From: Bacteroidota bacterium
GTDB taxonomy: Bacteria; Bacteroidota; Bacteroidia; Bacteroidales; VadinHA17
Assembly: GCA_022561875.1 (NCBI GenBank)
Contig: JADFQJ010000010.1
Coordinates: 3,235 to 67,234 of the forward strand
Length of the DNA: 64,000 bases
Direction of reading: 5' to 3'
In this document: piece by piece, positions 4,807 to 61,891 of the stretch
Position numbering within the stretch: position 1 is the stretch's first letter
Layout of the letters: each line of letters starts with the position of its first letter
Notes under the pieces: generated by a model
The model's input: the letters and a program-made list of their open reading frames with translations, nothing else
Databases searched by the model: none
Told to the model about the DNA's origin: nothing
Program-made: the position numbers and the translations under genes

Positions 4807-6192
4807 CTATTTCCTGAATTTCTTTACAAAATCTTCAACTTCCGGCACTCCTCCCTGGTAAACAAGGTAACCGTTGTATGGTTCCCGTTCGGTTATTTCA
4901 TCGTTGACAGGTGACAACATGATTTTTTTAACTTCAACCGGATCTTCAGTTTGACCCAGGGCCCAACCCAGTTTAATAAATGTTACTTCAGGAAGCATAT
5001 TTCCTGCCGGCACTACCCCTTTTGCCATCATATCGCGTCCGGTATCATAGACAAACATATGCACATAACCCCAGATGGTTTGCAGGGTCATATATATCGA
5101 AACACCTTTTTTCGCAGCCCTTTCAAGGGCGGGATAAATCTCTTTATTCACATGTCCCAGGCCTGTACCAACAATCACAACTCCCTTGTAGCCCATATCT
5201 ATCAGCGAATCAAGAATTTCCGCTTTCATATCCGGGTAATAATAAAGCATTGTAACCTTTTCGCTAAAGTAAGGAAGGATATTTACTTTCCTGTCTTTTC
5301 GCCGTGGATTATAGTTCTCCTTAATAAGTTTTATCTCATCCCTTTTTACTGTTGCAACAGGAATATCACCTATCGTTCGGAATGTGGAACGATATGAGCT
5401 GTGCATTTTCCTGACCCTGGTACCCCGGTGAAGGAAACCATATTCATCTGAAGTGGGCCCGAACATGCAGACTAAAGTTTCAGCGATATCGCCATGACCA
5501 GCTGCATACACAGCATGCATAAGGTTAAGGGCTGCATCTGAGGAAGGGCGGTCGGAAGAGCGTTGAGACCCTGTCAATATAATAGGTATGGGCTGATTCT
5601 GTATCATGAAAGATAGTGCTGCAGCGGTATGGTGAAGGGTATCGGTTCCGTGACTAATGATAATCCCGTCAATACCATTCCTGATCTCTTTTCCTATAGC
5701 TTTTGCCAGTGTAATGTATTGCGCAGGACCCATGTTTTCGCTAAAAATCGCAAAAAGTTTTTCGGTTGTAAGGTTACAGATATCAGCAAGTTCAGGTACT
5801 GCTCCATATAGCTCACCCGGCGAAAAGGCGGGAATAACGGCGCCTGTTCTATAGTCGAGACGGGAAGCAATTGTCCCGCCGGTGCCAAACAGCTTCACAT
5901 TGGGCAGATGGTCGGAATAAGGAAATTCTTTTTCAGGTATCTTGTAGTTGGCCTTTTGATAACCGGTCTCTTTCATGTTATTGATCGTGTCAATATCAAT
6001 TCCTATATTGTACCCGGTAGGGATCTTAAGCACAATATGCCTGTCATCATCATTTTCGGAGCGTGGTAAAACAGTTCCTGTAAATTTACCGCGAGTGGTA
6101 TCGATAAGCGTCTGCCCCCATACTCTGACATTGAACTTTCTCAGCACCCCGAGTGCAGCGCCTTTATATCCCTGGAAAATATCTTCAGCCAT
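4807..6192 (-). CDS. gatD: Glu-tRNA(Gln) amidotransferase subunit D (archaeal GatDE type; asparaginase-like glutaminase)
   Basis: 461 aa. A GatD-specific N-terminal domain of about 98 aa (HIVLKIPTGYNIGIDID) precedes an asparaginase fold. The catalytic motifs are FGTGGTIASRLDYRTGAV and IISHGTDTLHHTAAALSF. The gene lies directly downstream of gatE. Confidence 0.85.
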   Translation of the reverse strand: MAEDIFQGYKGAALGVLRKFNVRVWGQTLIDTTRGKFTGTVLPRSENDDDRHIVLKIPTGYNIGIDIDTINNMKETGYQKANYKIPEKEFPYSDHLPNVKLFGTGGTIASRLDYRTGAVIPAFSPGELYGAVPELADICNLTTEKLFAIFSENMGPAQYITLAKAIGKEIRNGIDGIIISHGTDTLHHTAAALSFMIQNQPIPIILTGSQRSSDRPSSDAALNLMHAVYAAGHGDIAETLVCMFGPTSDEYGFLHRGTRVRKMHSSYRSTFRTIGDIPVATVKRDEIKLIKENYNPRRKDRKVNILPYFSEKVTMLYYYPDMKAEILDSLIDMGYKGVVIVGTGLGHVNKEIYPALERAAKKGVSIYMTLQTIWGYVHMFVYDTGRDMMAKGVVPAGNMLPEVTFIKLGWALGQTEDPVEVKKIMLSPVNDEITEREPYNGYLVYQGGVPEVEDFVKKFRK

Positions 6193-6272
6193 AGTTTGTT
6201 GTTTTATGTTTCTTTTCCTTACTCATTTCTCCATTCTCCATTCTACATTTTCTCTAATTGTTACGAGTTTCG

Positions 6273-6358
6273 AGCTTGCCACGTGAAATGCGACGTTTAC
6301 CCTTTGAAATTTGAGGTACGAAAATATTTCACCAGGGAAGGAGCATATTTCACTGTGG
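6273..6358. repeat. Dispersed nested-hairpin repeat, copy A (86 bp); copy B is inverted at 55081-55200
   Basis: The 54 bp at 6305-6358 are identical to the reverse complement of 55081-55134. 6273-6295 matches the reverse complement of 55178-55200 at 22 of 23 positions. The element holds four GTGAAAT/ATTTCAC boxes. CCACGTGAAAT (6279-6289) can pair with ATTTCACTGTGG (6347-6358). Confidence 0.9.
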
Positions 6359-6365
6359 TTACGAG

Positions 6366-8405
6366 TTACGGGTTATGTACAATTTTTTCTATCTCTTTCT
6401 TTAGGTTTTTCATTTCAACATTCCCGGCTGCTTGTCTGTATACCTGGCCCATTAACCAATTTATTGTGTTTTTATCATTACCGGAGATTCGTATTTCTTT
6501 GAATTTTTCATAAAGGAAATCAACAGGTGCAAGCAGTTCATTCATTGACTTTTTTCTGAAATTGATGCTGATCAGCACTGAACTGAATTCCATATCCGGG
6601 TGTTCATAAATAACAGGAAGCATTCTTTTGGCGATGGAAGGCTGAAGTTTTTCGTTGTGAATAAATTTGAACAAACCGTATATTTTATTGTAGCTGAAAT
6701 TTTTATGTTGTGGCATCTTTCCTTCAATATTCTTAAATGTATGCCCCCAAAAGACCCCCAGAAATTTAGGCTCAAAGCCGAATTTCCCACTGATCTGCTC
6801 GATCATCGGCGCAAGATTCTTGCTTAACAGGTAATGGTAAGTATCTTCCGGGATGCCCCACGATTTCATTTGCCTGAACCTTTCGGCAACTGTTTGCGGG
6901 ATGTTTTTCCTGAGGGTTTCAATATAATCTGTTTTAAGAGGAATAGGGGCTGAATCAGTATCAGGGTACATGCGGTTAGCACCAGGGAGCACTCTTTTAA
7001 ATATAGTTGTGCCGTCCGGGAATGATTTTCTTGTTTCATTGGGTACCCCGTCAAATGCCATCTGACATCGTTCCTCAATCGTTTCAAGAGCAGTGGGGAT
7101 ATCCTCTTTTGGACCCCAGAACACAATCTGGGCATCATCTTCTTTCGGCTCAAGAATTCCGCAGATCTTTTCAAGATCTTTTTTATTAATATGATCTTCA
7201 AGCATTTCGGTGTGGATCATATTAGGCTTTTCAATACAGGCGATCACCTTCAGCCTGGTGGTTATTTCGTCTGCAAATATCTTCCCCGGCTGTGTAAAAT
7301 GAGAAAGAATACCTTTAAAATAAGGAAGGTTGACAGCGTAAATTTCGAAATTTTCGTTGTATGCTTTTTGTATATGTTCATTCTCCAGTCCCAGGTCACG
7401 AGGATCGATCTTACTTGATCTTATACTCCGGTTTTTTCCGTTTGCAACTCTCTCTTTGAGAAGTTTCCGGATATGCAGAAGGGCAAATTGCCGGAATGCC
7501 TCATTATGAGAAAGCTCAGGTATCCACTTATTGTGTGAAACGCCTTTTATTTCAACCCTGCTTCCTCCACGGCAGCTAACATTGACATCTTCACGTCCCG
7601 CTCCTATTCCTATCCGTACTTTGCCGGTGCTGCGGTTTAAAAACCTGATATATTCCGCGGCTTCCCTTAGCTCATCAGGAGTTTCCATATCAGGATATGT
7701 GACGGTTTCGATCAAAGGCATTCCCAGCCTGTCTGTCTTAAAAATGCGGGTATGCCTGATATCCGAAACCTCCCGGCAGGAATCCTCCTCGATACTTAGC
7801 TGGATCAGTCTGACTTTCTTATTTTTCAGTTGAATTTCACCTTCAACCCCCAGTATTGCTGTTCGCTGGAATCCGGTTGGGATACTTCCGTCGAGATATT
7901 GTTTTCGTGTGATATGAACCTCTCCAACAATATTCAGGCCTGACAGCAGCGATATCTCAAGAGCAATCTCAAGCGCTTCCTTATTAATCAGGAACGGAGG
8001 AGTGTCATCTATATCATAAGTACAGGCTGTCTGATTCTTGATCCGGTATATGATCTGCTTCCGGGTTTTATATTCCATCAGGGCTGTACCATCATATTCT
8101 CCAAGTTCGCTGAGGGTGGGCCGCATATGGCGGATGATCTCTGCATTATATTCATCATGATCATTGTATATGCCTGCAGGACAGTGGCAAAACAATTTCT
8201 TTTTTGTTTTTAGCTGTTGATGAACTTCCAAACCCGACTTAAAACCTATTCTCTTATAATCGGCCGGAGTTGCTTTTTTACGAGTCACATAGCCAATCTC
8301 CGACCGGGTTTTTTCGTAGTTCTTTTTAGGACTGAATCTTTTTTTCACCTGTGGAACAGTTGATAAATATATGAAAAAAATACGAATTAGAGACCTGATA
8401 ATCAA
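6366..8405 (-). CDS. gatE: Glu-tRNA(Gln) amidotransferase subunit E (archaeal GatDE type)
   Basis: 679-aa ORF with GatB/E core motifs: DYKRIGFKSGLEVHQQL..KLFCHC, DGSIPTGFQRT, LSIEEDSCRE, DRLGMPLIETVT, GAGREDVNVS and RVEIKGV. An inserted domain and a long C-terminal tail make it far longer than GatB (about 480 aa). The first 40 or so codons look non-native, and an in-frame GTG at 8288 is an alternative start. Confidence 0.85.
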   Translation of the reverse strand: MIIRSLIRIFFIYLSTVPQVKKRFSPKKNYEKTRSEIGYVTRKKATPADYKRIGFKSGLEVHQQLKTKKKLFCHCPAGIYNDHDEYNAEIIRHMRPTLSELGEYDGTALMEYKTRKQIIYRIKNQTACTYDIDDTPPFLINKEALEIALEISLLSGLNIVGEVHITRKQYLDGSIPTGFQRTAILGVEGEIQLKNKKVRLIQLSIEEDSCREVSDIRHTRIFKTDRLGMPLIETVTYPDMETPDELREAAEYIRFLNRSTGKVRIGIGAGREDVNVSCRGGSRVEIKGVSHNKWIPELSHNEAFRQFALLHIRKLLKERVANGKNRSIRSSKIDPRDLGLENEHIQKAYNENFEIYAVNLPYFKGILSHFTQPGKIFADEITTRLKVIACIEKPNMIHTEMLEDHINKKDLEKICGILEPKEDDAQIVFWGPKEDIPTALETIEERCQMAFDGVPNETRKSFPDGTTIFKRVLPGANRMYPDTDSAPIPLKTDYIETLRKNIPQTVAERFRQMKSWGIPEDTYHYLLSKNLAPMIEQISGKFGFEPKFLGVFWGHTFKNIEGKMPQHKNFSYNKIYGLFKFIHNEKLQPSIAKRMLPVIYEHPDMEFSSVLISINFRKKSMNELLAPVDFLYEKFKEIRISGNDKNTINWLMGQVYRQAAGNVEMKNLKKEIEKIVHNP

Positions 8406-8441: not shown

Positions 8442-8449
8442 CAAAATTA
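8442..8449 (-). promoter_or_regulatory. Bacteroidota -7 promoter box (TAATTTTG) for gatE
   Basis: The reverse complement of CAAAATTA matches the TAnnTTTG consensus. It lies 37 nt upstream of ATG 8405. Confidence 0.4.
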
Positions 8450-8776
8450 AACTTGTTTTACGGGATAACAAAGAAAGCTTGTGAAAAACATATCGGGAGA
8501 TGTTAAAACGGTGATTCAGTGTTGCGGGTTACGAGTTACGTGTTTCGGGTTAAGAATTTGGAAGTATCTAAAGACGCAACTTTAACCGGATTTGCTTCAC
8601 TTCGTAATGATCCGGAATTTCTTATAACTTATAACTTTTAAATTATTAAAAATGGTGATGAGGTGATGAGGTAATGGAGAAGAAGTAAGAAGTTAAAAGG
8701 TGAGACGGATAATGGATAAATGTTGTTTGGGTCTGCGTCTGGATTAAGACTGGGATAACTGGCTGTTGACGATTCG

Positions 8777-9088
8777 TTATAAGTCAATTTGTAATCCCGT
8801 TTTTTTAATTTGATTTACTATTGAGCTGTTTATTTTAAAATCGTCTTTATTAAAAACATGAGGTTCGATTAATGTTTCTTCACCCGTTCGTATTACCATT
8901 AACTGTACTTCAACATCAAATGTTTTTGAGTTGTCAGATAAGACAATAGCAATATCAATATCGCTATTTTCTTGATAGTTACCCTTAGCATAAGAACCAA
9001 ATAACCAGGCTTCTGAAAAGTTGATTTTTTGATCCTTAATCTTCATTAAGTATGATTTGCTTATTTTTATAGCTGTTTCTTTATCCAT
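8777..9088 (-). CDS. Minimal nucleotidyltransferase (MNT-type, antitoxin-like partner of HEPN)
   Basis: 103 aa. FGSYAKGNYQENSDIDIAIV matches the GS-X(9-11)-DXD pol-beta-type NTase motif. The gene overlaps the upstream HEPN gene by 22 nt. Confidence 0.8.
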   Translation of the reverse strand: MDKETAIKISKSYLMKIKDQKINFSEAWLFGSYAKGNYQENSDIDIAIVLSDNSKTFDVEVQLMVIRTGEETLIEPHVFNKDDFKINSSIVNQIKKTGLQIDL

Positions 9089-9465
9089 TTCCTTATTTCT
9101 TTAATTTTTTCCAGCCATTCTGTAGTGAATTTTTCCGTACATAGTTTGTAAAAACTCTGTTTATAGTCGTCATACCTGACATTTATATTGAATCTGGTAA
9201 TTGAATCTAAGATAACTTTCTTTTCTTTATCCGGTTCAATTCCTGCCTGTTCAATGATTCTCCTTAAGTCGTGTATTAAAGGCGGATATTCACCTTTTTC
9301 AAATACGTATTTGGCTTTGAGTATTTTTCCGATTACCAGGTGTCCTATAAACAATGACCAATGGTAGTTTTTTGTATTATAAAGGTCAATCATTGTTTTA
9401 TAATCTTTATCAGAACTGTCAATCCAGTATTTTATTAGTTTTTCCCTGTTAATATTTTTAGTCAT
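9067..9465 (-). CDS. HEPN domain protein
   Basis: 132 aa with an all-helical pattern. The LIHDLRRI and NVRYDDY helices resemble PF05168-type HEPN proteins. It is translationally coupled to the NTase gene. Confidence 0.7.
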   Translation of the reverse strand: MTKNINREKLIKYWIDSSDKDYKTMIDLYNTKNYHWSLFIGHLVIGKILKAKYVFEKGEYPPLIHDLRRIIEQAGIEPDKEKKVILDSITRFNINVRYDDYKQSFYKLCTEKFTTEWLEKIKEIRKWIKKQL

Positions 9466-9626: not shown

Positions 9627-10871
9627 TTAATCAAACCGTATTGCTTTAACAGGAGTGATTTTAGTAACCAGGTGGGATGGAATAATAAGCATCAGGAATG
9701 TGAGGAGAAGGGTTCCGGTATTCAGCAATAAAATGTAGGAAATTTCAAGATTTATTGGTACAGTCGCCAGGTAATAAGAAGCTTCATCCAACTTAACAAA
9801 ACCGGTTTTTTGTTGGATTAATGCAAGACCGATTCCAATCAGGTTCCCCCACAATAATCCTTTGGAAATCAGGAAAGCAGACTGGTAGAGAAAAATTTTC
9901 CTGATACTCAGATTATTACTCCCAATTGCTTTAAGGATACCGATCATATTGGTGCGTTCAAGGATAAGGATAAGCAGACTGGAAACCATATTAAAGCCTG
10001 TCACCAGCAACATCAGCGTCAGGATAATCCATACATTTGTGTCCTGTAAATTAAGCCAGTCGAATATTTGAGGATATTTCTGAACAATATTCGTGGTTAT
10101 CAGACGGGCGCCTTCCTCATCAAGGTTTACTCCCACCGTTCTCATTACTTCATATGTCATATAATCGAGGTCGTTGAAATTTTCGATACTAATTTCAAAC
10201 CCGCTTACCTGGTCATCATTCCAATCGTTAAGTTTCCGGATGTGGCCGATATCGGCCAGCACGAATATCTCATCGAATTCTTCCAGACTGGTGTTATAAA
10301 TCCCGGATATAGTAAATTTCCTCATTCGCGGCGGATCCTGGATAAAATACATGATAAAGGAATCGCCGGTTTTAAGCTTCAGAAGATCGGCAATATATTT
10401 TGATATCATAACTTTGTTAGTCCTGGCTGAATCAGTTACCTGGAATATTTCTCCTTCTGTCAGGTTACTCCTGAAAAAGGTCCAATCAAAATCGCTTCCA
10501 ATCCCCTTTAATACAACTCCTTGTATCTCTTCCTCTGTTTTAATAATCCCTGCTTTTGTTGCGAAAACCTGGATGTTTTTTATCCCTGGTTTGTTTTTCA
10601 GAATGTCGTAAAATTCCTGTTTGCCGGAAACAGGAACCGTTTCATATGAAATATTGCTGTCGTAGTTCAGTATCTGGATATGAGACCCGAAACCAATGAT
10701 TTTCCCTCTGATCTCGTTCTTAAAGCCTGTAACAATTGCAGTAGACACGATCATTACGGCAAGCCCAAGAGCAATCCCCAGGATGGCAATAAAAATGATC
10801 GGCCGTGATATACGGTTATCACCTTTTTGGTCGGAAACCAGTCTTCTTGCTATGAATAATTCGGTGTTCAC
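9627..10871 (-). CDS. LolC/LolE-family (FtsX-like) ABC transporter permease
   Basis: 414 aa. It begins MNTELFIARRL with an N-terminal TM (IIFIAILGIALGLAVMIVS), followed by a large periplasmic loop and three C-terminal TMs. It ends TPVKAIRFD. Confidence 0.8.
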   Translation of the reverse strand: MNTELFIARRLVSDQKGDNRISRPIIFIAILGIALGLAVMIVSTAIVTGFKNEIRGKIIGFGSHIQILNYDSNISYETVPVSGKQEFYDILKNKPGIKNIQVFATKAGIIKTEEEIQGVVLKGIGSDFDWTFFRSNLTEGEIFQVTDSARTNKVMISKYIADLLKLKTGDSFIMYFIQDPPRMRKFTISGIYNTSLEEFDEIFVLADIGHIRKLNDWNDDQVSGFEISIENFNDLDYMTYEVMRTVGVNLDEEGARLITTNIVQKYPQIFDWLNLQDTNVWIILTLMLLVTGFNMVSSLLILILERTNMIGILKAIGSNNLSIRKIFLYQSAFLISKGLLWGNLIGIGLALIQQKTGFVKLDEASYYLATVPINLEISYILLLNTGTLLLTFLMLIIPSHLVTKITPVKAIRFD

Positions 10872-11244
10872 TTTGATAATTTGGTAAGCAAAGGTACTAA
10901 AAAGTCAGCAGTCAACAGTCAACAGTCGACAGTCAGCATTTACTCTTGCAATGAGATATTTATCATGTTAGTAAGAAATTTCCTAAAGACGAACTTTACT
11001 TTTTGACCACTCAGATAAGAGAATACTCAAGATATGTTTGTTCAAATCCTTATTCACATGATTCAAAATCCTGAAAAGTATAAATAGCACAGTCTTTAGA
11101 TTGCCGACTGAAGATTGCCGACTTAAAGATGCAAAGTATAATGAGATTAGCTATTTTTGGCATTTAAAACTTAAGACACTGAATAGTTACCTTATCATTA
11201 GTGATTATGTATATTTATTCTTTTTTTATTGTAAAATATTTTCG

Positions 11245-12435
11245 ATGAAAAATAGAAACGATATTATTATAAGAGTATTTGCAGTAATGCTTTTTGTTAT
11301 TATGTGGCAGGGTATTTTAACAGGTCAGGTTATTACAGGTGCTGCCCGTACAGGGGAATATCTTCCTTTGCTCAGTGGGAAAAAAGTTGCTGTTGTAGCC
11401 AATCACACATCAATGATTTGGGAAACACACTTGGTAGATAGTCTTTTATCCCTTGGAGTTGATATTAAGAAAATTTTTAGTCCGGAGCATGGATTTGGTG
11501 GTACTGCTGATGCCGGTGAACATCTTGAAGACTACCTGGATAAACAAACAGGATTGCCTGTTATTTCATTGTATGGCAGTCACAGGAAACCTGTTGATAA
11601 GGATATGGAAGGGTTGGATGTTGTGCTGTTTGACATCCAGGATATCGGAGTAAGGTTTTACACTTATATTTCTACCATGCATTATGTGATGGAAGCCTGT
11701 GCTGAAAACAAGGTGGATTTCATAGTGCTTGACAGACCCAATCCTAATGGATTTTATGTGGATGGCCCGGCGCTTGATACTGCCTGGCGATCGTTTGTTG
11801 GTATGCATCCGGTGCCGGTGGTTCATGGAATGACGGTTGCCGAATATGCACGGATGATTAATGGCGAAGGATGGCTGAAAGACAGCTTAACCTGCAACCT
11901 GAAATATGTGAAATGTGAAAATTACACACATAAAACTTATTATGAATTGCCGGTAAAACCTTCGCCCAATCTTCCTGACCTCCGGTCTGTGTATCTTTAT
12001 CCCTCATTATGTTTTTTTGAAGGGACCTGTATGAGTGTCGGACGAGGGACCGATTTACCTTTTCAGATCTTCGGGCATCCTGATTATCCTGACACCGGTT
12101 CCTCTTTTACACCCCGTAGTATTGAAGGGGCAGCTACCAATCCGAAGTACATTGGAGAAATCTGTAATGGTGTGGACCTTTCACATATCCCGTTCGAATT
12201 CGTGCGCGATAACCGCCGGTTGGTGCTCGATTGGCTCATAGATGCATACAATAGCATGGAGAATAAGGAAGACTTCTTTAACGCATACTTCGATAAGCTT
12301 GCAGGCAGCAGTGATTTACGGGAACAAGTCATCGCCGGGAAGAATAAGTGGGTTATTCGTGCATCCTGGAAAAAAGATATTGAAGCCTTCAAGATTATCA
12401 GGAAAAAGTACCTGCTTTATAAGGATTTTGAATAG
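11245..12435 (+). CDS. DUF1343 family protein (NamZ-like exo-beta-N-acetylmuramidase)
   Basis: The track start at 11101 reads through the repeat-filled spacer. ATG 11245 gives the signal/anchor MKNRNDIIIRVFAVMLFVIMW. Family hallmarks are VVANHTS, ISLYGSHRKP, DVVLFDIQDIGVRFYTYISTM and VLDRPNP. Confidence 0.8.
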   Translation: MKNRNDIIIRVFAVMLFVIMWQGILTGQVITGAARTGEYLPLLSGKKVAVVANHTSMIWETHLVDSLLSLGVDIKKIFSPEHGFGGTADAGEHLEDYLDKQTGLPVISLYGSHRKPVDKDMEGLDVVLFDIQDIGVRFYTYISTMHYVMEACAENKVDFIVLDRPNPNGFYVDGPALDTAWRSFVGMHPVPVVHGMTVAEYARMINGEGWLKDSLTCNLKYVKCENYTHKTYYELPVKPSPNLPDLRSVYLYPSLCFFEGTCMSVGRGTDLPFQIFGHPDYPDTGSSFTPRSIEGAATNPKYIGEICNGVDLSHIPFEFVRDNRRLVLDWLIDAYNSMENKEDFFNAYFDKLAGSSDLREQVIAGKNKWVIRASWKKDIEAFKIIRKKYLLYKDFE

Positions 12436-12494
12436 TTCAACGATCCTATCAGATTGGTGATTAGTATATGTTAGAACGAATCAGGAGGTTTGTT

Positions 12495-13694
12495 TTATAG
12501 TGTCCTTCCCGGGTAAACCTTCAGCGCCTCTTCCAGAGCTTTCATGGCCATTACAAGGTCATCCTTTTTCAGAACGTAAGCAATACGAACCTCTTGCCTG
12601 CCTAAGCCGGGGGTGGCATAAAAGCCGGAAGCCGGGGCAAGCATTACAGTGGAGTTATTGTATTCAAAATCACTGAGAAGCCATTGTGCAAATTTATCGG
12701 CGTCATCCACAGGAAGGTGAGTAATGGTATAGAAAGCGCCTCCAGGCATGGGACATTTTACTCCTTCCATTTTGTTTAATGCTTCAACCATGAAGTTGCG
12801 GCGTTCAATGTATTCGTTATAAACTTCCTCAAAATATTCGTCGGGTGTGTCAAGGGCTGCTTCACCAACGATCTGCCCTAACGCGGGAGGACAGAGCCGT
12901 GCCTGTGCAAACTTGATAGCCGAATCCATAATCTCCTTGTTTTTGGTTACCATAGCGCCAATCCTAACTCCGCAGGAACTGTAGCGCTTGGAAATCGAAT
13001 CAATCATTACTACATTTTGCTCAATTCCATCGAGATGCATAGCCGAAAAATGTTCATTTCCATCGTAGCAGAATTCACGGTAAACTTCATCTGAAAATAG
13101 ATACAGATCATGTTTCTTTACAATATCCCTTAGTTTTTCCAGTTCATTGAGAGAGTAAAAATAGCCTGTAGGATTGTTGGGATTACAGATGATGATCCCC
13201 TTTGTTTTAGGAGTTATTTTCTTTTCAAATTCCTTCATAGGAGGAAGCGCAAACCCGTTTTCAATAGTGGAGGTTACAGGTTTTACCTTGATCCCTGCGG
13301 CAATTGCAAATCCGTTGTAATTAGCATAAAACGGTTCTGATATAATAATTTCGTCTCCCGGGTCAAAGCAAACCATCATAGCAAATGCAATAGCTTCCGA
13401 GCCACCGGTTGTGATCATTAATTCATTGTGGTCCACATTGATACCAATGTTCCGATAATATTTAGCCAGCTTTATGCGGTAAGATTCATTTCCGGCAGAA
13501 TGACTGTATTCTATAATTGTGAGATCCATATTCCGCACTGCATCGAGTGCTACTTTGGGAGTAGGAATATCAGGCTGTCCAATGTTTAGATGATAAACCT
13601 TTCGTCCTTTTCGTTTGGCTTCTTCAGCATAGGGTGTAAGCTTTCTGATAGGTGAGGCAGGCATTAATTTTCCTTTTTCTGAAATAGCTGGCAT
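12495..13694 (-). CDS. PLP-dependent aminotransferase, class I/II (aspartate/aromatic type)
   Basis: 399 aa. Motifs are HLNIGQPD, IICNPNNPTG, and SISKRYSSCGVRIG carrying the PLP lysine. Confidence 0.85.
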   Translation of the reverse strand: MPAISEKGKLMPASPIRKLTPYAEEAKRKGRKVYHLNIGQPDIPTPKVALDAVRNMDLTIIEYSHSAGNESYRIKLAKYYRNIGINVDHNELMITTGGSEAIAFAMMVCFDPGDEIIISEPFYANYNGFAIAAGIKVKPVTSTIENGFALPPMKEFEKKITPKTKGIIICNPNNPTGYFYSLNELEKLRDIVKKHDLYLFSDEVYREFCYDGNEHFSAMHLDGIEQNVVMIDSISKRYSSCGVRIGAMVTKNKEIMDSAIKFAQARLCPPALGQIVGEAALDTPDEYFEEVYNEYIERRNFMVEALNKMEGVKCPMPGGAFYTITHLPVDDADKFAQWLLSDFEYNNSTVMLAPASGFYATPGLGRQEVRIAYVLKKDDLVMAMKALEEALKVYPGRTL

Positions 13695-13854: not shown

Positions 13855-13989
13855 CATCAAGAAAGGGAAGAAGGGAATGGAGGGATTAAAGGGAATAGAT
13901 GGAATAGAGAAAAAAAATAGTTTATCCAGCACCCAGCACCCAGTAACCAGTAGCATTTAGCATATAACTTTATAACTTTTTACTTATTT

Positions 13990-18925: not shown

Positions 18926-18998
18926 TTAATTAACTCAAGTTGCTAGTTGCTCGTTACTAGTTACTGGTTAATATACTATAATTCAATTGTTTATAAAA
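18926..18998. repeat. Dispersed 66/73-bp repeat, copy 1 (five heptads)
   Basis: Aligns with 49877-49942 in the same orientation, with 3 mismatches and one 7-bp indel (TAGTTAC). The core is a tandem array: AGTTGCT AGTTGCT CGTTACT AGTTACT GGTTAAT. Confidence 0.9.
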
Positions 18999-23145: not shown

Positions 23146-26100
23146 ATGGTTAAGAATAAACTCAAACAAGCTGTAATTTTCTGCTGCATTTTCTCCTTTT
23201 CGTTCCTGTTTTCCATTAACGGAAAAGCACAAACCTCCATTTCCGGTATAATTAACAGCTATATTGATGTTACAACCCTGATTGATGCTGATGAGCTTAC
23301 AGTTAGTGATGCTTCAGCCTTCAGTGCCGGTGATACAATTTTACTGATACAGATGAAAGGTGTTGCGATTCAAGTTGTTAGTAATTTTGGATCAAGACAA
23401 AACATCTATTCGGCAGGTAAATATGAAATAATAATAATTTCTTCTGTAAGCGGGAACGATATCACTTTTGCCAGTGATATGACTAATTCATATGATGCGG
23501 ATGGTCATATGCAGATGATCAGAGTTCCCGGGTATGATAATGCCATGGTTACCGGCAATGTTACCTGTCCTGCCTGGGATACAGCTGCAGGTACAGGGGG
23601 AGTAGTAGTGATGATCGTAGGGAACAAGCTGACACTGGAAGCAGATATAGATGTAACCGGTAAAGGATTTTCAGGAGCTCAACCTTATACCACCTCAGAT
23701 GTTTTATGTACAACGAATACAGACTTCTTTTTTCCGGCCGGTTCGGACAGTGCCGGTTTTAAAGGCGAAGGTGCAGCAAGTTATGCCGTGGATAATACCA
23801 ATCCGCTGAATGGGGATTATGCCAAGGGAAGAGGCGCTTATTTCAATGGTGGTGGAGGTGGTAACGGTAAATATTCCGGCGGCGGGGGAGGAGCTAATGG
23901 AGGTACCGGTGGTTTAGGTGGAAAACAACTGGAAACTTGTGCAATTGTATTAGGGATTGGTGGTAAGGGTGGAAAATCTATTCCTAATGAAATAGGAGAT
24001 TTTGATACCAGAAATATTATCTTTATGGGAGGTGCTGGAGGTGCTTCTACCCAGCTTGCCAATGGAGATGGAACTGCCGGTGGTAACGGTGGTGGTATTA
24101 TTATTATTTTGGCAGATACTATTATTGGAAACGGACATTATATTAAAGCAAACGGTCAGACAGTTGTTGATACTACAAATGGCACAGGAGGCGCAGGAGG
24201 AGGAGGAGCCGGAGGAACAATATTGCTTGATGTAAAGAGTTATAAAGGATTGACACTTAATGTTCATGCTTCAGGCGGTGGTGGCGGTCGAACAGGAGCT
24301 GCCTCAGATAGTTGTACCGGCCCCGGCGGTGGCGGTGGCGGTGGAATAGTCTGGTATTCACAGGTTGTATTACCGACGGAAATTAATTTGGAGTTCAAGA
24401 AAGGTTTAGCTGGAAGCGGAAGCGGAAATTGTTCTCTCTTTGGTCAGTCAGACGGAAATCCCGGTACTACTGTTGCTGATTTGAAAATACCTCTTACCGG
24501 ATTTCTGTTTAATTCAATATTTTCAATCAGGTCAGAGGCTCTGAAAGACACCCTTTGTGAGGGAGATATTCTTCCTAAACTTCTGGGAACTGATCCACGT
24601 GGCGGGATACCACCATATGAATACCGATGGGAAAGCAGTACCGACAACCTGACCTGGAATATTGACCGGGACTTTGGGGTTGGCGGAAAAGATTATAATC
24701 CTCTCTCGGTAATGATTGATACTACCTATTACCGGCGTACAGTGAAAGATAATTCAGCACCTCCGATTGTTGATATCAGCAAAACAATTACGATAATAGT
24801 CCAACCCAAAATTGAACAGAACTCCCTGAACTTTGACACAATTATCTGCCTGAACCAGATACCAAATACAATTATTCCTGAGTTCTCTTCACCAATTGGC
24901 GGCGATGGCATATATTCATATTTATGGGAACAGAGTACTGACGGAACAAATTTTATTGATGCCCCAAATGTGAATAATACGGAGACATATCAACCCCCCG
25001 TCCTTTCAACAGCTCAAATCTATTATTACCGGCGAACTGTTTATTCAGGAAAATGTTCACATACAAGTGATACTGTAACAATAACTGTTTTATCCTCGAT
25101 ATCAAATAATGCTATTACTGCCGATCAAACAATTTGCGAGGGGAATGTTTTTCTTCCACTCGATGGTGCTGCTCCGGCAGACGGAGATGGAATATATACT
25201 TACCAGTGGATCGAGAGCGCCGATGGAAATACCTGGAGCAATGCATACAGCCCCGGGACGGATAAAGATTATTCACCGGATACTACTTCCGCTAAATTTC
25301 CGGGTACTCTCTTTTTTGAACGTGTTGTATATTCCGGTTTTAATGATTGTTGTGTAGATACAAGTAACCAGGTTACATTGATTGACTGGCCCAAAGTTGA
25401 AAATAACTTTATCATTACTGATCAGGTGATATGTGAAGATGACGATCCGGTAGCTGTTTCAGGTCTGACCCCGGCAGGTGGTAATGGTGCCTATACTTAC
25501 CAGTGGCAGGAAAGGATTGGCGCTGCCGTATGGAGCAACATTGGTACGGATGCTCGCGATTATGATCCGGCAGCTCTGACCGATACGACATTTTACCGGA
25601 GAGTGGTTGATTCTGATGTATGTACCGATACCAGTAATATTGATACAATTCCTGTTCACCCATACATAATAAACAATATTATTCAAACTTTGGGAGATCG
25701 GATGGACACTACTATTTGCGAGGGAGCATTGCCAAATTCTCTCACGGGTGCGCTGCCGGGCGGTGGTATAGGTACTTATTCTTATCTTTGGAACGAGAGT
25801 ACAGATGGTTCTTCGTGGTCGGCAGCAGGTGGCACTAATAATAATTCAGATTATGCTCCGGCGAACCTGGCCGGTACTACATTTTATAAGCGGGAAGTAT
25901 CATCCGGAGTTTGTTCCGATTTAAGTGCGGTACTTGACATCAATGTCTTACCTGCCCTGGGAAATAATTCCATATCAGCCGGTCAAACTATCTGTTACAA
26001 CACAATACCCGCCCGTATTGACGGGGTTTTGCCAACAGGAGGAAATGGTACCTATACTTATCAGTGGGAAGAAAGTACGGATAATATAGCCTGGAACCCG

Positions 26101-27279
26101 GCATCCGGCACGAATGACGGATTAAATTACCAGCCCGGAGCGCTTACATCACAGAAGTTCTACCGGCGGGTGATTTTTTCCGGTGCTGTTGATTGTTGCA
26201 GTGACACATCCAATGTGGTTTCAGTAAGCATTGATCCCCTGCCGACAGGAATACTTACAAACCTTACTGATACAATCTGCAAAGGCTCTAATGTTGTTCT
26301 TATAGTTGATCTGACAGGAGCATCACCGTGGGATCTGACTTATTCTGACGGAACTACGAATTTCAATGAAAATGGAATCTCAACCGCATCACATAGCTTT
26401 AATGTTAGTCCACTGTCCAGCTCTGATTTTACATTGGTCTTACTCACGGATGCTAACGGATGTTCTGATACAAGCCTGACCGGAACCGCTGATATTACGG
26501 TATATGAAATACCTGTCGCTAATGCCGGTGCGGATGATGAAACTTGCGAATTAGTTTATATACTTGATGCTAACCCGTCTGTTGGCTCAGGATTGTGGAC
26601 TTATGCGGGAGTTCCGGTGTTGAGCGCCACCGGTAATACAGATGCTCAGAATCAGGTTACTTTGTCAGATTACGGCAAATATACTTTTACCTGGACTGAA
26701 AGTAACTGGAATTGCATTGATTCCGATGATGTTGAAGTGACATTCTGGGAATCATCTACCCCTGCCGAGGCAGGAGAAGATCAATTGTTAAGCTCTTATG
26801 CTAAAGAAACCCTTCTTGAGGGGAATGTACCCCTGGCAGGTACGGGAGAATGGACTAAATTGCCAGGTGAAAGTGAAAGTATTATTGAAGATCCATCCGA
26901 TCCAAATACCCGTGTAAGTAATATGATTACAGGAGAATATGAGTTTGTCTGGACAATAATCAATGGGGTTTGCCCTGAAGAGAGTGATGTAGTTAAGATT
27001 ACTGTAAATAGGCTTTTTATTCCCTCAGGGTTTTCTCCTAATGGGGATGAAATAAATGATTTTTTTGAGATAAGGGGAATAAAAGATGTTCCCAACTTGT
27101 TAATTATACTCAACAGTGGTGGTAACGAGGTGTACAGGCAAAAGAATTACCAGAATGATTGGGATGGGACCTACAAATCAGGAGAGGATTTACCTGAAGA
27201 TACATATTATTATATTTTCTATATTTACGATCCTGATAATCCAAGAGAGGAAAGCGGGTTTGTTGTTATTAAAAGATAA
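23146..27279 (+). CDS. Large cell-surface protein with a T9SS type-B (gliding-motility-associated) C-terminal sorting domain
   Basis: 1377 aa with a signal peptide. It has Gly-rich blocks (GGGGGNGKYSGGGGGANGGTGGLGGK and others) and six 92-99-aa repeats. The C-terminus, FIPSGFSPNGDEINDFFEIRG...NDWDGTYKSGEDLPEDTYYYIFYI...GFVVIKR, matches the TIGR04131-type CTD. Confidence 0.88.
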   Translation: MVKNKLKQAVIFCCIFSFSFLFSINGKAQTSISGIINSYIDVTTLIDADELTVSDASAFSAGDTILLIQMKGVAIQVVSNFGSRQNIYSAGKYEIIIISSVSGNDITFASDMTNSYDADGHMQMIRVPGYDNAMVTGNVTCPAWDTAAGTGGVVVMIVGNKLTLEADIDVTGKGFSGAQPYTTSDVLCTTNTDFFFPAGSDSAGFKGEGAASYAVDNTNPLNGDYAKGRGAYFNGGGGGNGKYSGGGGGANGGTGGLGGKQLETCAIVLGIGGKGGKSIPNEIGDFDTRNIIFMGGAGGASTQLANGDGTAGGNGGGIIIILADTIIGNGHYIKANGQTVVDTTNGTGGAGGGGAGGTILLDVKSYKGLTLNVHASGGGGGRTGAASDSCTGPGGGGGGGIVWYSQVVLPTEINLEFKKGLAGSGSGNCSLFGQSDGNPGTTVADLKIPLTGFLFNSIFSIRSEALKDTLCEGDILPKLLGTDPRGGIPPYEYRWESSTDNLTWNIDRDFGVGGKDYNPLSVMIDTTYYRRTVKDNSAPPIVDISKTITIIVQPKIEQNSLNFDTIICLNQIPNTIIPEFSSPIGGDGIYSYLWEQSTDGTNFIDAPNVNNTETYQPPVLSTAQIYYYRRTVYSGKCSHTSDTVTITVLSSISNNAITADQTICEGNVFLPLDGAAPADGDGIYTYQWIESADGNTWSNAYSPGTDKDYSPDTTSAKFPGTLFFERVVYSGFNDCCVDTSNQVTLIDWPKVENNFIITDQVICEDDDPVAVSGLTPAGGNGAYTYQWQERIGAAVWSNIGTDARDYDPAALTDTTFYRRVVDSDVCTDTSNIDTIPVHPYIINNIIQTLGDRMDTTICEGALPNSLTGALPGGGIGTYSYLWNESTDGSSWSAAGGTNNNSDYAPANLAGTTFYKREVSSGVCSDLSAVLDINVLPALGNNSISAGQTICYNTIPARIDGVLPTGGNGTYTYQWEESTDNIAWNPASGTNDGLNYQPGALTSQKFYRRVIFSGAVDCCSDTSNVVSVSIDPLPTGILTNLTDTICKGSNVVLIVDLTGASPWDLTYSDGTTNFNENGISTASHSFNVSPLSSSDFTLVLLTDANGCSDTSLTGTADITVYEIPVANAGADDETCELVYILDANPSVGSGLWTYAGVPVLSATGNTDAQNQVTLSDYGKYTFTWTESNWNCIDSDDVEVTFWESSTPAEAGEDQLLSSYAKETLLEGNVPLAGTGEWTKLPGESESIIEDPSDPNTRVSNMITGEYEFVWTIINGVCPEESDVVKITVNRLFIPSGFSPNGDEINDFFEIRGIKDVPNLLIILNSGGNEVYRQKNYQNDWDGTYKSGEDLPEDTYYYIFYIYDPDNPREESGFVVIKR

Positions 27280-28197
27280 ATGAAATATCTGGCAGCTATA
27301 TTGTTTTTCTTATTAACTTCTGTGAGTTCTTTCTCACAGTTCTATCCCATTTACTCGCAATACATGATGAACGGAATGGTGTTGAATCCAGGTTATACAG
27401 GCAGCCGGGGAACTTTTGCCCTTTCTTCATCTTACCGGAAGCAATGGGTAGGTATAGAAGGAGCCCCTGAAATAACCACCTTCAGTGCACATGCACCTTT
27501 GAAAAATGACAAGGTTGCACTTGGTTTGCTGGTTTTTAACGAAAGCATTGGCGTAAAAAATACAATAGGTGTTTTTGCTAACTATGCCTATCATATTCAT
27601 GCCGGGACCGGTCGGTTATCATTCGGGTTAAAAGGAGGAGTACATATTATAAATGCAGATTTCAGTAGTATCCGGACAGTGGAAGAAGACCCTGTTTTTA
27701 CCAGCGGCTTATCAAGCTATACTTTACCTAATTTTGGGGTCGGTTTTTATTATTATACTGACAAGGCGTTTTTCGGAGCATCAGTACCACGATTGCTAAG
27801 TTACAGAGAAAGAAGTTCAAGGAACAGCTATGAGATTTACCACGACATAAAACAATATAATTTCCTCATTACCACAGGTGTGATGATACAGTTTAGCAAG
27901 GAATTCATGTTTAAACCTTCGTTCCTGATAAAGTATAGCCAGGTATCCCCATTACAGGTTGATCTGAACGGGAATTTTATTATTAAGGATTTCCTGTGGC
28001 TGGGTGGATCATGGAGGATTGATGATAACACACTTGTTGTTATCATTGAGGTACAGGTTAATAACCAGTTTAAGATAGGTTATTCGTATGATTATAATAC
28101 AGGATATCTGAATACATTTAACAATGGAACACATGAAATTGTTGTAAGATATGAATTTGGATATAAAGTGAATGCTAACAATCCGAGGTACTTTTAG
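27280..28197 (+). CDS. PorP/SprF-family type IX secretion system membrane protein
   Basis: 305 aa. The ATG directly abuts the upstream TAA. A signal peptide is followed by QFYPIYSQYMMNGMVLNPGYTG, the family-typical opening. It shows a beta-barrel strand pattern. Confidence 0.85.
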   Translation: MKYLAAILFFLLTSVSSFSQFYPIYSQYMMNGMVLNPGYTGSRGTFALSSSYRKQWVGIEGAPEITTFSAHAPLKNDKVALGLLVFNESIGVKNTIGVFANYAYHIHAGTGRLSFGLKGGVHIINADFSSIRTVEEDPVFTSGLSSYTLPNFGVGFYYYTDKAFFGASVPRLLSYRERSSRNSYEIYHDIKQYNFLITTGVMIQFSKEFMFKPSFLIKYSQVSPLQVDLNGNFIIKDFLWLGGSWRIDDNTLVVIIEVQVNNQFKIGYSYDYNTGYLNTFNNGTHEIVVRYEFGYKVNANNPRYF

Positions 28198-28201
28198 GGA
28201 G

Positions 28202-29635
28202 ATGAATAGTTTTTTTAAACTTGTTATAGGATTAGTTTTTATCGTTGGGCTTGCCATGCCGGTCCAATCACAGGATAATTATAAAATCGAGGTGCTTCCT
28301 TTTAATTCCGGAATTTTTGATGATTTTGCCCCGGTAATCTTTAAGAATGGGATCATGTTTTGTTCTAACCGTAAGAATAAAATATTGTCTGATTATACTA
28401 CAACAGATGATGAGCGGCTGCTTGACATCTATTGGGTTGAACAAAAAGACAATTTAAAATGGGGCAGACCGAGATTGATGTCCGATGATATTTCTACTAT
28501 TTTTCACGAAGGTCCTGCATGTTTGAATAAAGAAGAGAATATCATTTTTTTTACGCGAAACTATACAATAGACAGGAAAAACAGAAAGGACAGGAACCAG
28601 AATAACTTTGGGATTTTTACTGCAAGACGTATAGGGGAGAGGTGGTCTGATATCAAGCCATTTAAGTATAATGATCCTGACTATAATATAGCTCATCCTA
28701 CCCTTAGCAGAGACGGTAATCAATTATTTTTTGCATCAGACATGCCCGGTGGTAATGGCAAGTCAGATATTTATTTTTCTACAAAAGAAAACGGAGATTG
28801 GATTACTCCTGTGAACCTTGGACCGAAAATGAACAGTGATAGTTCTGAAATTTATCCTTTTATACATGAGAGTGGAAGGCTCTATTTTGCATCTGCCCGC
28901 AAATCCTCATTGGGTGGTTTGGATATTTATTATTCACAGTTTGTTGACGGCGAATGGATAGAACCCATTCAATTGCCTTCACCTTTCAATTCTCCATCGG
29001 ATGATTTTGCATATATTGCTGACGGTTTATTTGAGACCGGTTTTTTCTCATCCAACAGGGGCCGGACAGATGATGTTTTTAGATTTATTTCAATGATTCC
29101 CAGGTATGCCGATTGTCAGCAGATAGAGGAGATTAGTTATTGCTATGAAATTACTGAAGAAGGAGCGGCAAGACTCGATACATTACCATTTATCTATGAA
29201 TGGGATTTGGGAGATGGTACAAAGAAACTGGGAATAAGGGTTGAGCATTGTTATGAAAATCCCGGAGTTTATATGGTACAGTTGAATGTTATTGATTCAC
29301 TTACAATGGAAGTGAAATATAATGAAGCAGCATATCCGATTCAAGTTGATAAAGTTGAACAAGTGATGTTTAATGCAGTGGATACATGCCACGTAGGTGA
29401 CAAGGTTGAATTTGACGGATCGGAAACCAGCTTCAGCAATTTTGAAATAGCCGATTATCGATGGAATTTTGATGACGGGAATGTCGGTATATCTTCCAAA
29501 GTCAGCAACCTGTTTCTCGCCCCCGGTATATATAATGTTCAGCTTATGGTAAAAAGCAAGCCGGATCAAGATGGACAAACAAAAACAAGATGTGGAAGTA
29601 AAAATATTGTAGTTCTTGAAAAAACATCCCTGTAA
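28202..29635 (+). CDS. Secreted protein with TolB-like PD40 repeats and two PKD domains
   Basis: ATG 28202 gives the signal peptide MNSFFKLVIGLVFIVGLAMPVQS. PD40-like repeats include HPTLSRDGNQLFFASD...GKSDIYFS and YPFIHESGRLYFAS...GGLDIYYS. PKD motifs are YEWDLGDGT and YRWNFDDGN. There is no OmpA domain. Confidence 0.75.
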   Translation: MNSFFKLVIGLVFIVGLAMPVQSQDNYKIEVLPFNSGIFDDFAPVIFKNGIMFCSNRKNKILSDYTTTDDERLLDIYWVEQKDNLKWGRPRLMSDDISTIFHEGPACLNKEENIIFFTRNYTIDRKNRKDRNQNNFGIFTARRIGERWSDIKPFKYNDPDYNIAHPTLSRDGNQLFFASDMPGGNGKSDIYFSTKENGDWITPVNLGPKMNSDSSEIYPFIHESGRLYFASARKSSLGGLDIYYSQFVDGEWIEPIQLPSPFNSPSDDFAYIADGLFETGFFSSNRGRTDDVFRFISMIPRYADCQQIEEISYCYEITEEGAARLDTLPFIYEWDLGDGTKKLGIRVEHCYENPGVYMVQLNVIDSLTMEVKYNEAAYPIQVDKVEQVMFNAVDTCHVGDKVEFDGSETSFSNFEIADYRWNFDDGNVGISSKVSNLFLAPGIYNVQLMVKSKPDQDGQTKTRCGSKNIVVLEKTSL

Positions 29636-56569: not shown

Positions 56570-56640
56570 TTCTGAAGAGATTATTATGGTTTATCCGGAA
56601 AGTGAATAGGTGTCAGATGGAATAATGGAAAAATGGAATA

Positions 56641-56868
56641 GTGGAAGAAAGGAAAAAGATAAATAGGGATTTTAAACAATTGAGTGTTTGGCAGGATGCT
56701 ATTTCATTATATGTTTTATCTTCAAAGATGTTGTCTGGTTTCTCATTTGAATTTTTAGAAATAAGTCTTGGATCATGCGGGGATTTTCATTCATCATATT
56801 ACAGTTTCTTTAAAGCTGATCAAATTTCAAAAGATGAATTTGAGTCGTTGGATAAGTTACATTATTAA
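56641..56868 (+). pseudogene. Truncated four-helix-bundle protein (23S rRNA intervening-sequence protein family, TIGR02436-like)
   Basis: FKQLSVWQDAISLYVLSSKM matches the family N-terminus (F..L.VWQ.A..L). The sequence then jumps straight to FEFLEISLGSCGDF (family EF..FL.IA.GS), so about 40 central codons and the last 20 or so are missing. The apparent N-terminus MEERKK is read from an 8-mer array. Confidence 0.5.
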
Positions 56869-61669: not shown

Positions 61670-61891
61670 TAAATGATAAGATAATCTTTTTCTTTTCGAA
61701 ATCCCGGTTTACTTTCCTGATTCAATCTCTGAAAGAACTTTTAGCTTGAAACTTTCACTGTACTTCTTAATTGTCCTGTTGTCTTTTAACATTTTTAATA
61801 AGTATAGTGTAGACATTTTTCAGGACGGGTCAACATCTTACTCCTTACTAACTACTTCTTACTATTTACTTTTCTTTTGTGGTGTCATAAT

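Follow-up and report, generated by a model that had tools for sequence, protein, structure and literature searches.

A 64,000-nucleotide stretch of contig JADFQJ010000010.1 (assembly GCA_022561875.1, Bacteroidota bacterium), referred to here as the window, carries on its minus strand two adjacent genes, gatE (6366..8348) and gatD (4807..6192). Together they probably encode an active GatDE-type tRNA-dependent amidotransferase that is a long-standing resident of the chromosome, as judged from profile, structure and locus comparisons. GatDE is treated as an archaeal enzyme in the literature, as a preliminary description of this DNA had stated, and reviews from 2021–2022 place it only in archaea (PMC8007984, PMC9499178). 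The same description had assigned the two adjacent open reading frames (ORFs) to GatE and GatD, and we confirm their coordinates and all of the motifs quoted for them.

Identity and domain structure of GatE and GatD

The gatE coding sequence (6366..8348, minus strand) specifies 660 residues between a GTG start codon at 8348-8346 and a stop codon at 6368-6366, and is assigned from NCBIfam equivalog models, alignment to PDB structures and the starts of homologues. The mechanical ORF spans 6366-8405 on the same strand and counts 679 residues from a TTG. GatE scores 475.4 bits against NF003107 (cut-off 456) and 421 bits against TIGR00134 (cut-off 319.55), both NCBIfam equivalog models. Furthermore, it aligns over its full length with the archaeal chains 2d6f_C (298 bits) and 1zq1_C (277 bits). 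The GatB models are not passed: they give 54–133.5 bits, the best being 133.5 against a cut-off of 338, and all of their cut-offs are at or above 314.8. The profile comparison proposed in the preliminary description thus separates the pair from GatB and, as described below, from ordinary asparaginases.

The GatE translation contains the motifs GLEVHQQL..KLFCHC, DGSIPTGFQRT, LSIEEDS, DRLGMPLIE, and GREDVNVS. Residues H43, E187, and E214 align with residues 15, 157, and 184 of 2d6f_C. In the Methanothermobacter thermautotrophicus (Mth) enzyme, we take H15, E157, and E184 to be metal/ATP-site residues of the cradle domain, in which an RK motif is also conserved, an assignment reportedly due to Oshikane et al. 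2006. The residues H43, K149, E187, E188, E214, R252, N256, and D465 are invariant in the 17 Bacteroidota-type, 32 middle-tier, and 85 archaeal-type sequences that were compared (these groups are described below). An AlphaFold2 (AF2) model of GatE has a mean predicted local distance difference test (pLDDT) score of 75 and a predicted template modelling (pTM) score of 0.68. A structure search with this model returns GatE chains as the top matches, with E values of 6e-30 to 3e-27 and target TM scores of 0.63–0.68. The best GatB match has an E value of 4e-15, about 15 orders of magnitude worse.

GatE also contains an AspRS-like (GAD) insertion domain, which GatB lacks, at residues ~305–433 (7050..7436, minus strand; boundaries approximate). 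This region aligns with the matching part of 2d6f_C and 1zq1_C, and it forms a distinct α/β unit in the AF2 model with sub-threshold AspRS fold matches. In agreement with this, PF02938 is assigned in precomputed Pfam annotation to the close GatE homologues P0033 and P0047. The C-terminal part of GatE (residues ~554–658; 6375..6689, minus strand; limits approximate) is a putative helical tail domain of the YqeY-like type, a kind of domain with which GatE proteins bind the tRNA D-loop. It is all-helical in the model, with pLDDT values of 82–95, and scores 24.3 bits with Pfam GatB_Yqey, slightly under the gathering score of 27. The NCBIfam equivalog alignment extends to the C-terminus.

The gatD coding sequence (4807..6192, minus strand) specifies 461 residues and is assigned from NCBIfam equivalogs, Pfam and PDB alignment. 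GatD scores 487.3 bits against NF003217 (cut-off 310) and 485 bits against TIGR02153 (cut-off 324). The type I asparaginase subfamily model TIGR00519 gives 371 bits, below the GatD equivalog scores. Pfam recognizes GatD_N (PF18195, 44.6 bits, cut-off 25.7), Asparaginase, and Asparaginase_C, and the asparaginase domain begins at residue 98. The protein aligns from end to end with 2d6f_A (381 bits) and 1zq1_A (376 bits). Its translation contains the TGGTIAS and HGTDT motifs, and residues T107, T183, D184, and K262 align with T101, T177, D178, and K254 of Mth GatD. These four residues are invariant in 69 of 69 full-length bacterial GatDs.

The window pair thus has the same two subunits, domain sets (the YqeY-like tail being putative), and catalytic residues as the archaeal enzymes of M. 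thermautotrophicus (2D6F) and Pyrococcus abyssi (1ZQ1), from which it differs in having a bacterial host and in being ~30–39% identical. With AnsA, the type I L-asparaginase, GatD shares the full asparaginase fold and the Thr/Thr/Asp/Lys set; it differs by the addition of GatD_N and a C-terminal tail and by a gene that adjoins gatE. GatE has in common with GatB of the bacterial GatCAB enzyme the cradle catalytic domain, a putative YqeY-like tail, and membership of a family that carries out ATP-dependent transamidation of a mischarged tRNA. In contrast, GatCAB employs the amidase-signature GatA as the partner, together with GatC, whereas the system in the window has the asparaginase-fold GatD, no GatC, and the AspRS-like insertion.

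Two appendages set the window proteins apart from the crystallized archaeal enzymes: a basic N-terminal extension of 28 residues, predicted to be helical, in GatE and a tail in GatD that is ~17–24 residues longer. The GatE extension (8262..8348, minus strand) comprises the initiator and 28 residues, KKRFSPKKNYEKTRSEIGYVTRKKATPA, with 10 K/R and 2 D/E. These residues, which precede DYKRIGFK, are basic and conserved across the Bacteroidota-type clade. They have no counterpart in the crystallized archaeal GatE chains, and the alignment to those chains starts at query residue 30. The median number of residues before GLExH falls from 38 in the Bacteroidota-type clade to 24.5 in the middle tier and to 12 in sequences of archaeal type. 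Residues 7–18 are predicted by AF2 to form a helix, with pLDDT values of 79–95. The GatD tail together with the stop codon occupies 4807..4881 (minus strand; PYNGYLVYQGGVPEVEDFVKKFRK) and overruns the C-termini of both crystallized GatDs. Its clade form, PYNGYLVYQGGVPEVExFVKKFRK, is almost invariant within the clade, and the tail is still discernible throughout the superclade described below, for example at the middle-tier loci L081 and L083–L085. We can only guess that the extension and the tail contact tRNA or a partner protein.

Inheritance of the pair and its place in the GatDE family

The window opens in a bacterial 23S–5S rRNA operon. It encodes Porin_10, PorP/SprF, a PorE-like protein, a cargo protein sorted by the type IX secretion system (T9SS), fused SecDF, LolD, a LolE-like permease, ValRS, and MutS. 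The host is assigned to Bacteroidota from this gene content; the T9SS components PorP and PorE, the T9SS sorting domain, Porin_10, and fused SecDF bear out the host named in the preliminary description.

When one genome was scanned for each GTDB species, no fewer than 134 species-level genomes proved to encode a close relative of GatE. The related loci considered here are the best 80 of these 134, in which GatE is 59–90% identical and which are mostly from Bacteroidales. gatD directly follows gatE in about 70 of the 80. The order lolE–gatE–gatD…Porin_10 is held in L001–L008, L011, L021, L031, and L034, at GatE identities as low as 66%, and genes for NamZ, an aminotransferase, and ValRS are often also present in this neighborhood. 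Across syntenic pairs, identities are 80–92% for GatD, 66–90% for GatE, 56–91% for LolE, 71–91% for the aminotransferase, and 64% for ValRS. In the pairs with ValRS at 64%, GatD is 80–86% and GatE 66–72% identical. The best match is 88–92% identical, and the species of the window is absent among the GTDB representatives.

In base composition and codon usage the pair is native to the window. The GC content is 0.44 for gatD and 0.42 for gatE, with 0.42 at third codon positions (GC3), and the codon-usage distances to the rest of the window are mid-range (0.064 for gatD and 0.063 for gatE). We conclude that gatDE is long-resident, vertically inherited, and under strong purifying selection. Because the composition is native and divergence tracks that of the neighboring genes, any inter-domain event would be ancient and would long precede this genome. 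The exact GatD protein of the window is found beside the same porin gene in assemblies from three separate sequencing runs. Furthermore, identical junctions around gatDE recur in many independent assemblies, as expected from the earlier statement that the pair is resident and not a chimeric join.

Plasmid and phage collections contain no match to GatE save on one haloarchaeal replicon of 987 kb (CP031304.1, Natrinema thermotolerans). The match, at 707003-707959, covers 49% of the query (residues 30–354), has no PLSDB-table feature beneath it, and might represent a fragment or else a gene missing from that table. In some genomes gatE has no gatD within 10 kb, namely at L042 (OY781965.2), L045 (OY764079.1), L016, and others (two complete Bacteroidales chromosomes and a few contigs of metagenome-assembled genomes (MAGs)); gatD must lie elsewhere or be missing there. 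At L042, rsmH precedes gatE, and CNNM/CorC and SurA-like genes follow it.

When 1.84 billion cluster representatives were searched exhaustively with HMMER, 605 clusters matched at E ≤ 1e-30. Their GatE sequences fall into tiers. One cluster is 63% identical to the window protein (Bacteroidota-type), ~30 clusters are at 42–54% (the middle tier), and the bulk is at 29–38%, the tier in which the crystallized archaeal enzymes are found. A neighbor-joining tree, read by midpoint rooting and bipartition support only and built without a GatB outgroup, joins the Bacteroidota-type clade and the middle tier in a superclade with a bootstrap value of 100/100; the remainder forms a second group.

The identifiable members of this superclade are nearly all bacterial. 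Those of the middle tier that carry a name are bacteria, one given as 'candidate division CSSED10-310' and two as 'Deltaproteobacteria bacterium', and three of the four middle-tier loci inspected have clearly bacterial neighbors. Products encoded around gatE at these three loci include Mur ligases, MraZ/RsmH, and apolipoprotein N-acyltransferase; sigma-54 activators; HPr kinase/PTS; and an outer-membrane factor together with an RND pump. A number of carriers bear the label Neomarinimicrobiota, Aminicenantes, Lentisphaeria, or Chlorobiota. The flanks of the loci labelled Aminicenantes and Neomarinimicrobiota are bacterial, and the phylum label is not resolvable from the flanking genes. At the fourth inspected locus, L084 (ENA ERZ24794647 NODE_384, 10001-13440), the neighbors are archease, DUF835, PAS, and 2-oxoacid:ferredoxin oxidoreductase genes, and judging from these the host may be archaeal. 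The N-terminus of its GatE is 48 residues long and bears no relation to the Bacteroidota extension, and the locus could be informative on the direction of transfer.

Gene order also differs between the groups. gatE precedes gatD in the window and at all four inspected middle-tier loci, whereas the typical archaeal locus L087 (with histone, deoxyhypusine synthase, and Sec61-beta genes) has gatD before gatE, and its GatD, of 441 residues, lacks the C-terminal tail. The closest named archaeal GatE is that of a MAG of Heimdallarchaeota, an Asgard lineage (P0279, locus L086); the representative of its 90%-identity cluster, P0157, is 39% identical to the window GatE (409 bits). Heimdallarchaeota GatE adjoins the superclade in 68 of 100 bootstraps. 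The Heimdallarchaeota GatD, of 463 residues, resembles the window GatD at its N-terminus and ends in a tail related to that of the clade (REPFDGYLILQG). This system differs from that of the window in its divergent gene arrangement, the absence of a long GatE N-terminal extension, and its archaeal context. The bacterial clade may be nested within Asgard diversity or be its sister. Depending on the root, the superclade would have arisen either by an ancient archaea-to-bacteria transfer followed by spread over bacterial phyla, or as a lineage as old as the domain split.

Expression signals and neighboring elements

Most of the 120 closest GatE homologues start with MKK(R)F.PxKNY, which corresponds to the in-frame GTG at 8348. 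The codon at the equivalent position is GTG in L001–L005, the five closest relatives, and ATG in L006–L008, with in-frame stops a few codons upstream. Because of these stops, the TTG-extended frame is not conserved. On these sequence comparisons, gatE starts at GTG 8348, and neither at TTG 8405 nor at GTG 8288. The latter was rejected as a start, as it would delete residues conserved clade-wide. The stretch upstream (8349..8405, minus strand; 19 codons) is a non-coding leader, and its equivalent in L001–L005 is broken by in-frame stops. The longer GatE N-termini of a few homologues look like ORF-caller extensions of the same sort.

These results modify the earlier view of the N-terminus, in which about 40 codons with no resemblance to GatE preceded the conserved core. 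Nineteen codons lie in the non-coding leader and what follows is the conserved 28-residue extension, so the oddness was overstated. The in-frame GTG at 8288 exists as described, but its role as a start is at variance with the starts of the homologues and with the codons in L001–L008.

Upstream of the leader is a candidate promoter of Bacteroidota type (8442..8472, minus strand), with TTTG at 8472-8469, a spacing of 19 nt, and TAATTTTG at 8449-8442. The TTTG/TAATTTTG-type consensus is presumably the Bacteroides promoter form. The −7 box at 8442-8449, already pointed out in the preliminary description, is present and is kept with its flanks (AACAAGTTTAATTTTG) in all five closest relatives. In L005 it lies merely 22 nt from the GTG. 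The window and L001–L004 have ~70 nt more than L005 between the −7 box and the GTG, so that the leader ranges from ~15 to ~85 nt. A sigma-70 promoter and terminator scan, with a model not built for Bacteroidota promoters, gave counts not above those in shuffled sequence, and the terminator scan found no terminator-like site on the minus strand in the gatE–gatD interval. Most likely, gatE and gatD are co-transcribed from the candidate promoter.

The intergenic spacer between gatE and gatD (6193..6365, minus strand) is 173 bp long, as had been described. Its characterization as repeat-only is not borne out: it contains one 7-nt tandem array of 3.3 copies at 6227-6249, detected by Tandem Repeats Finder (TRF), and two weak two-copy direct repeats. 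In L001–L005 the spacer measures 85–334 bp and is rich in short repeats, and it is only 13–20 bp in more distant relatives; the expanded form is confined to the window and its five closest relatives. The final ~20 nt (GAAACATAAAACAACAAAC) are kept in most close relatives. Tandem arrays of 7–9 nt in 3–5 copies, which have lengthened the gatE–gatD spacer in this lineage, are spread over much of the intergenic DNA in the window, for example at 6227-6249, 8621-8676, 10903-10935, 13864-13909, 18938-18970, 56617-56654, and 61836-61871. Such repeats are a lineage-wide trait of intergenic DNA and are uninformative on transfer. A 9-mer, ACTCGTAAC, occurs on the minus strand at 6260-6268, 6358-6366, and 8528-8536, all flanking gatE (3 copies against 0.22 expected), and two of the copies extend to GTAACTCGTAAC. 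It was considered as a mobile-element signature and dropped, as it is missing from L001–L005.

Between lolE and gatE lie two minus-strand ORFs that overlap by 22 nt, the upstream HEPN/NTase pair of the preliminary description. One encodes a nucleotidyltransferase (NTase; 8777-9088, 103 residues, PF18765/PF01909) and the other a HEPN protein (9067-9465, 132 residues, PF05168). Their GC content is 0.28–0.30, against ~0.40 in the neighboring genes, and their codon-usage distances of 0.125–0.138 make them outliers in the window. The pair is found in none of the 80 related loci. This absence and the foreign composition mark it as a separate insertion, which looks like a recently acquired HEPN/MNT toxin–antitoxin module. 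Neither this pair nor the spacer with its repeats marks a transfer; both were added later and are specific to the lineage.

An HEPN/NTase pair of foreign GC content next to gatE, and a spacer unusually long in comparison with distant relatives, would suit a recent inter-domain acquisition of gatDE within an accessory island, and the preliminary description had taken such neighbors as a sign of inter-domain transfer. We consider this very improbable. The HEPN/NTase insertion is separate, the short tandem repeats are widespread in the window, and gatDE has native composition and a divergence that parallels its neighbors. In addition, the lolE/Porin_10 synteny persists among assemblies with different labels at GatE identities as low as 66%, and the nearest archaeal sequence is only ~39% identical. 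Recent acquisition is thus refuted by the synteny, composition, and divergence data. That the pair is an artefact (a chimeric assembly, archaeal contamination, or a GatB and an ordinary asparaginase misread as GatE and GatD) is more improbable still, and nothing speaks for it but the prior expectation that GatDE is archaeal. The pair is flanked on both sides by bacterial genes on one contig, and the same junctions, with the exact GatD in three sequencing runs, recur across assemblies. The misreading is countered by the presence of GatD_N and by the low GatB scores in both the profile and the structure searches. We regard this alternative as refuted, read-level coverage excepted.

Elsewhere in the window, the plus-strand ORF at 37852-39228 scores 515 bits with TIGR03990 Arch_GlmM (cut-off 439) and 206 bits with the bacterial GlmM model (cut-off 448). 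This phosphoglucosamine mutase is the second archaeal-labelled enzyme in the window. The mechanical ORF overlaps an rluF-like ORF by ~146 nt, so that its true start is probably further downstream. A T9SS cluster at 23146-29635 (plus strand) encodes a cargo protein of 1377 residues, AgmC-like at its N-terminus and ending in a sorting domain of type B; genes for PorP/SprF and a PorE/OmpA-like protein come after it.

Function of the pair and bacterial routes to Gln-tRNA(Gln)

In the proposed mechanism, which is based on homology with the archaeal enzyme, a gatE–gatD transcript would originate from the candidate promoter at 8442-8472 and be translated from GTG 8348. A GluRS able to charge tRNA(Gln) with glutamate would be a prerequisite; all archaea combine GatDE with such a non-discriminating GluRS and lack GlnRS. 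GatD, as an asparaginase-fold amidase, would hydrolyze Gln or Asn to release ammonia. GatE would bind the mischarged Glu-tRNA(Gln), activate the glutamyl side chain with ATP, and use the ammonia to yield Gln-tRNA(Gln). The substrate, the requirement for a non-discriminating GluRS, and the roles of the extensions are inferred.

Several points limit the case for a GatDE enzyme active on Glu-tRNA(Gln). The model of GatE has 117 residues with pLDDT below 50, and the Pfam GAD and YqeY models fall below significance on the window GatE itself. The 64-kb window contains no glnS, gltX, gatB, gatA, or gatC. Likewise, no glnS, gltX, or gatB was found in 86 related loci (1.4 Mb), searched by tblastn with an E. 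coli GlnRS sequence and for weak GatE paralogues. The window contains no tRNA-Gln, nor did a scan of the 86 loci detect one close to gatDE. In bacteria, tRNA(Gln) normally carries a U1:A72 pair, and the tRNA(Gln) of the window host is presumed to do so too. Archaeal GatDE is reported to recognize A1:U72 together with the D-loop in archaeal tRNA(Gln) (PMC9499178), so a shift in specificity may have occurred. GlnRS is present in all Bacteroidales sampled in surveys from 2014, and a discriminating GluRS is deduced for them as well (PMC3927822, PMC4206432). If this typical combination is present here, GatDE would therefore be left without a Glu-tRNA(Gln) substrate.

How the pair relates to the other routes can be weighed only against this background. 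In classical Bacteroidales, GlnRS and AsnRS are present and GatCAB is missing, and the surveys sampled lineages other than those with GatDE (PMC3927822, PMC4206432). Several switches between the direct and the indirect route have taken place within the phylum: gatCAB is found without glnS in Cytophagia, Flavobacteriia show the reverse, and some lineages have both (PMC3927822, PMC4206432). The absence of gatCAB from Bacteroidales and this repeated switching are compatible with GatDE having replaced GlnRS in the lineage as the only path to Gln-tRNA(Gln), GatCAB having already been lost. Consistent with this, GatD and GatE are conserved at least as well as ValRS, as expected of an essential translation enzyme, and gatE is found in housekeeping settings, beside the rRNA operon in the window and with mraZ/rsmH/mur genes at L083 and L042. 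However, GlnRS is present in every Bacteroidales genome of the two surveys, and strong conservation equally fits a useful but non-essential role; we hold this replacement as a tentative possibility. Coexistence with GlnRS and AsnRS, which Bacteroidales normally already have, would instead be explained if the enzyme kept its chemistry and changed its substrate, to Asp-tRNA(Asn), to both Asp-tRNA(Asn) and Glu-tRNA(Gln) as in bacterial GatCAB, or to a mischarged tRNA outside translation. The conserved clade-specific tail of GatD and predicted basic helix of GatE, the difference presumed between host and archaeal tRNAs at the 1:72 pair, and the genomes with gatE but no adjacent gatD point in this direction. 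A change of substrate is nonetheless unlikely: the catalytic and ATP/Mg-site residues are all unchanged, the tRNA-measuring tail domain is apparently kept, and no consistently linked partner gene indicates another pathway.

The GatDE-type amidotransferase of the window is one more orthologue of genes that are already annotated. NCBI and IMG list GatE in Bacteroidales, Bacteroidia, Salinivirgaceae, Perlabentimonas, and the cultured Ancylomarina subtilis. The annotated bacterial proteins, including those of A. subtilis, Perlabentimonas, and Salinivirgaceae, are orthologues of the window pair (59–90% identity for GatE and 68–92% for GatD) and share its operon, its extensions, and often its neighborhood, the HEPN/NTase insertion being found in the window only. 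The preliminary description had tied the novelty of the pair to GatDE not being already common and described in this lineage. GatDE is indeed common and annotated there, but no account of a GatDE from bacteria turned up in our searches of the literature. The gap thus lies between the databases and the literature.

In the reviews, the presence of GatDE in LUCA, the last universal common ancestor, its co-evolution with archaeal tRNA(Gln), and the lack of GlnRS in archaea are argued from an archaea-only GatDE (PMC8007984, PMC9499178). Bacterial surveys score gatCAB and glnS only and take the indirect pathway to be defunct wherever gatCAB is missing (PMC3927822, PMC4206432). Both assumptions are unsafe, because GatDE is well conserved in at least 134 bacterial species, with more in other phyla. 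An archaeal host as the criterion for GatDE is taxonomic rather than molecular and is outdated by these data. We tentatively suggest that the superclade, Asgard-related and with appendages of its own, might represent a third bacterial route to Gln-tRNA(Gln), which could be the sole or main one in environmental Bacteroidales without GatCAB. If so, the absence of gatCAB would not signify the absence of an indirect pathway, and GatDE would not be an archaeal signature. The existence of a cultured carrier, Ancylomarina subtilis, makes bacterial GatDE experimentally tractable.

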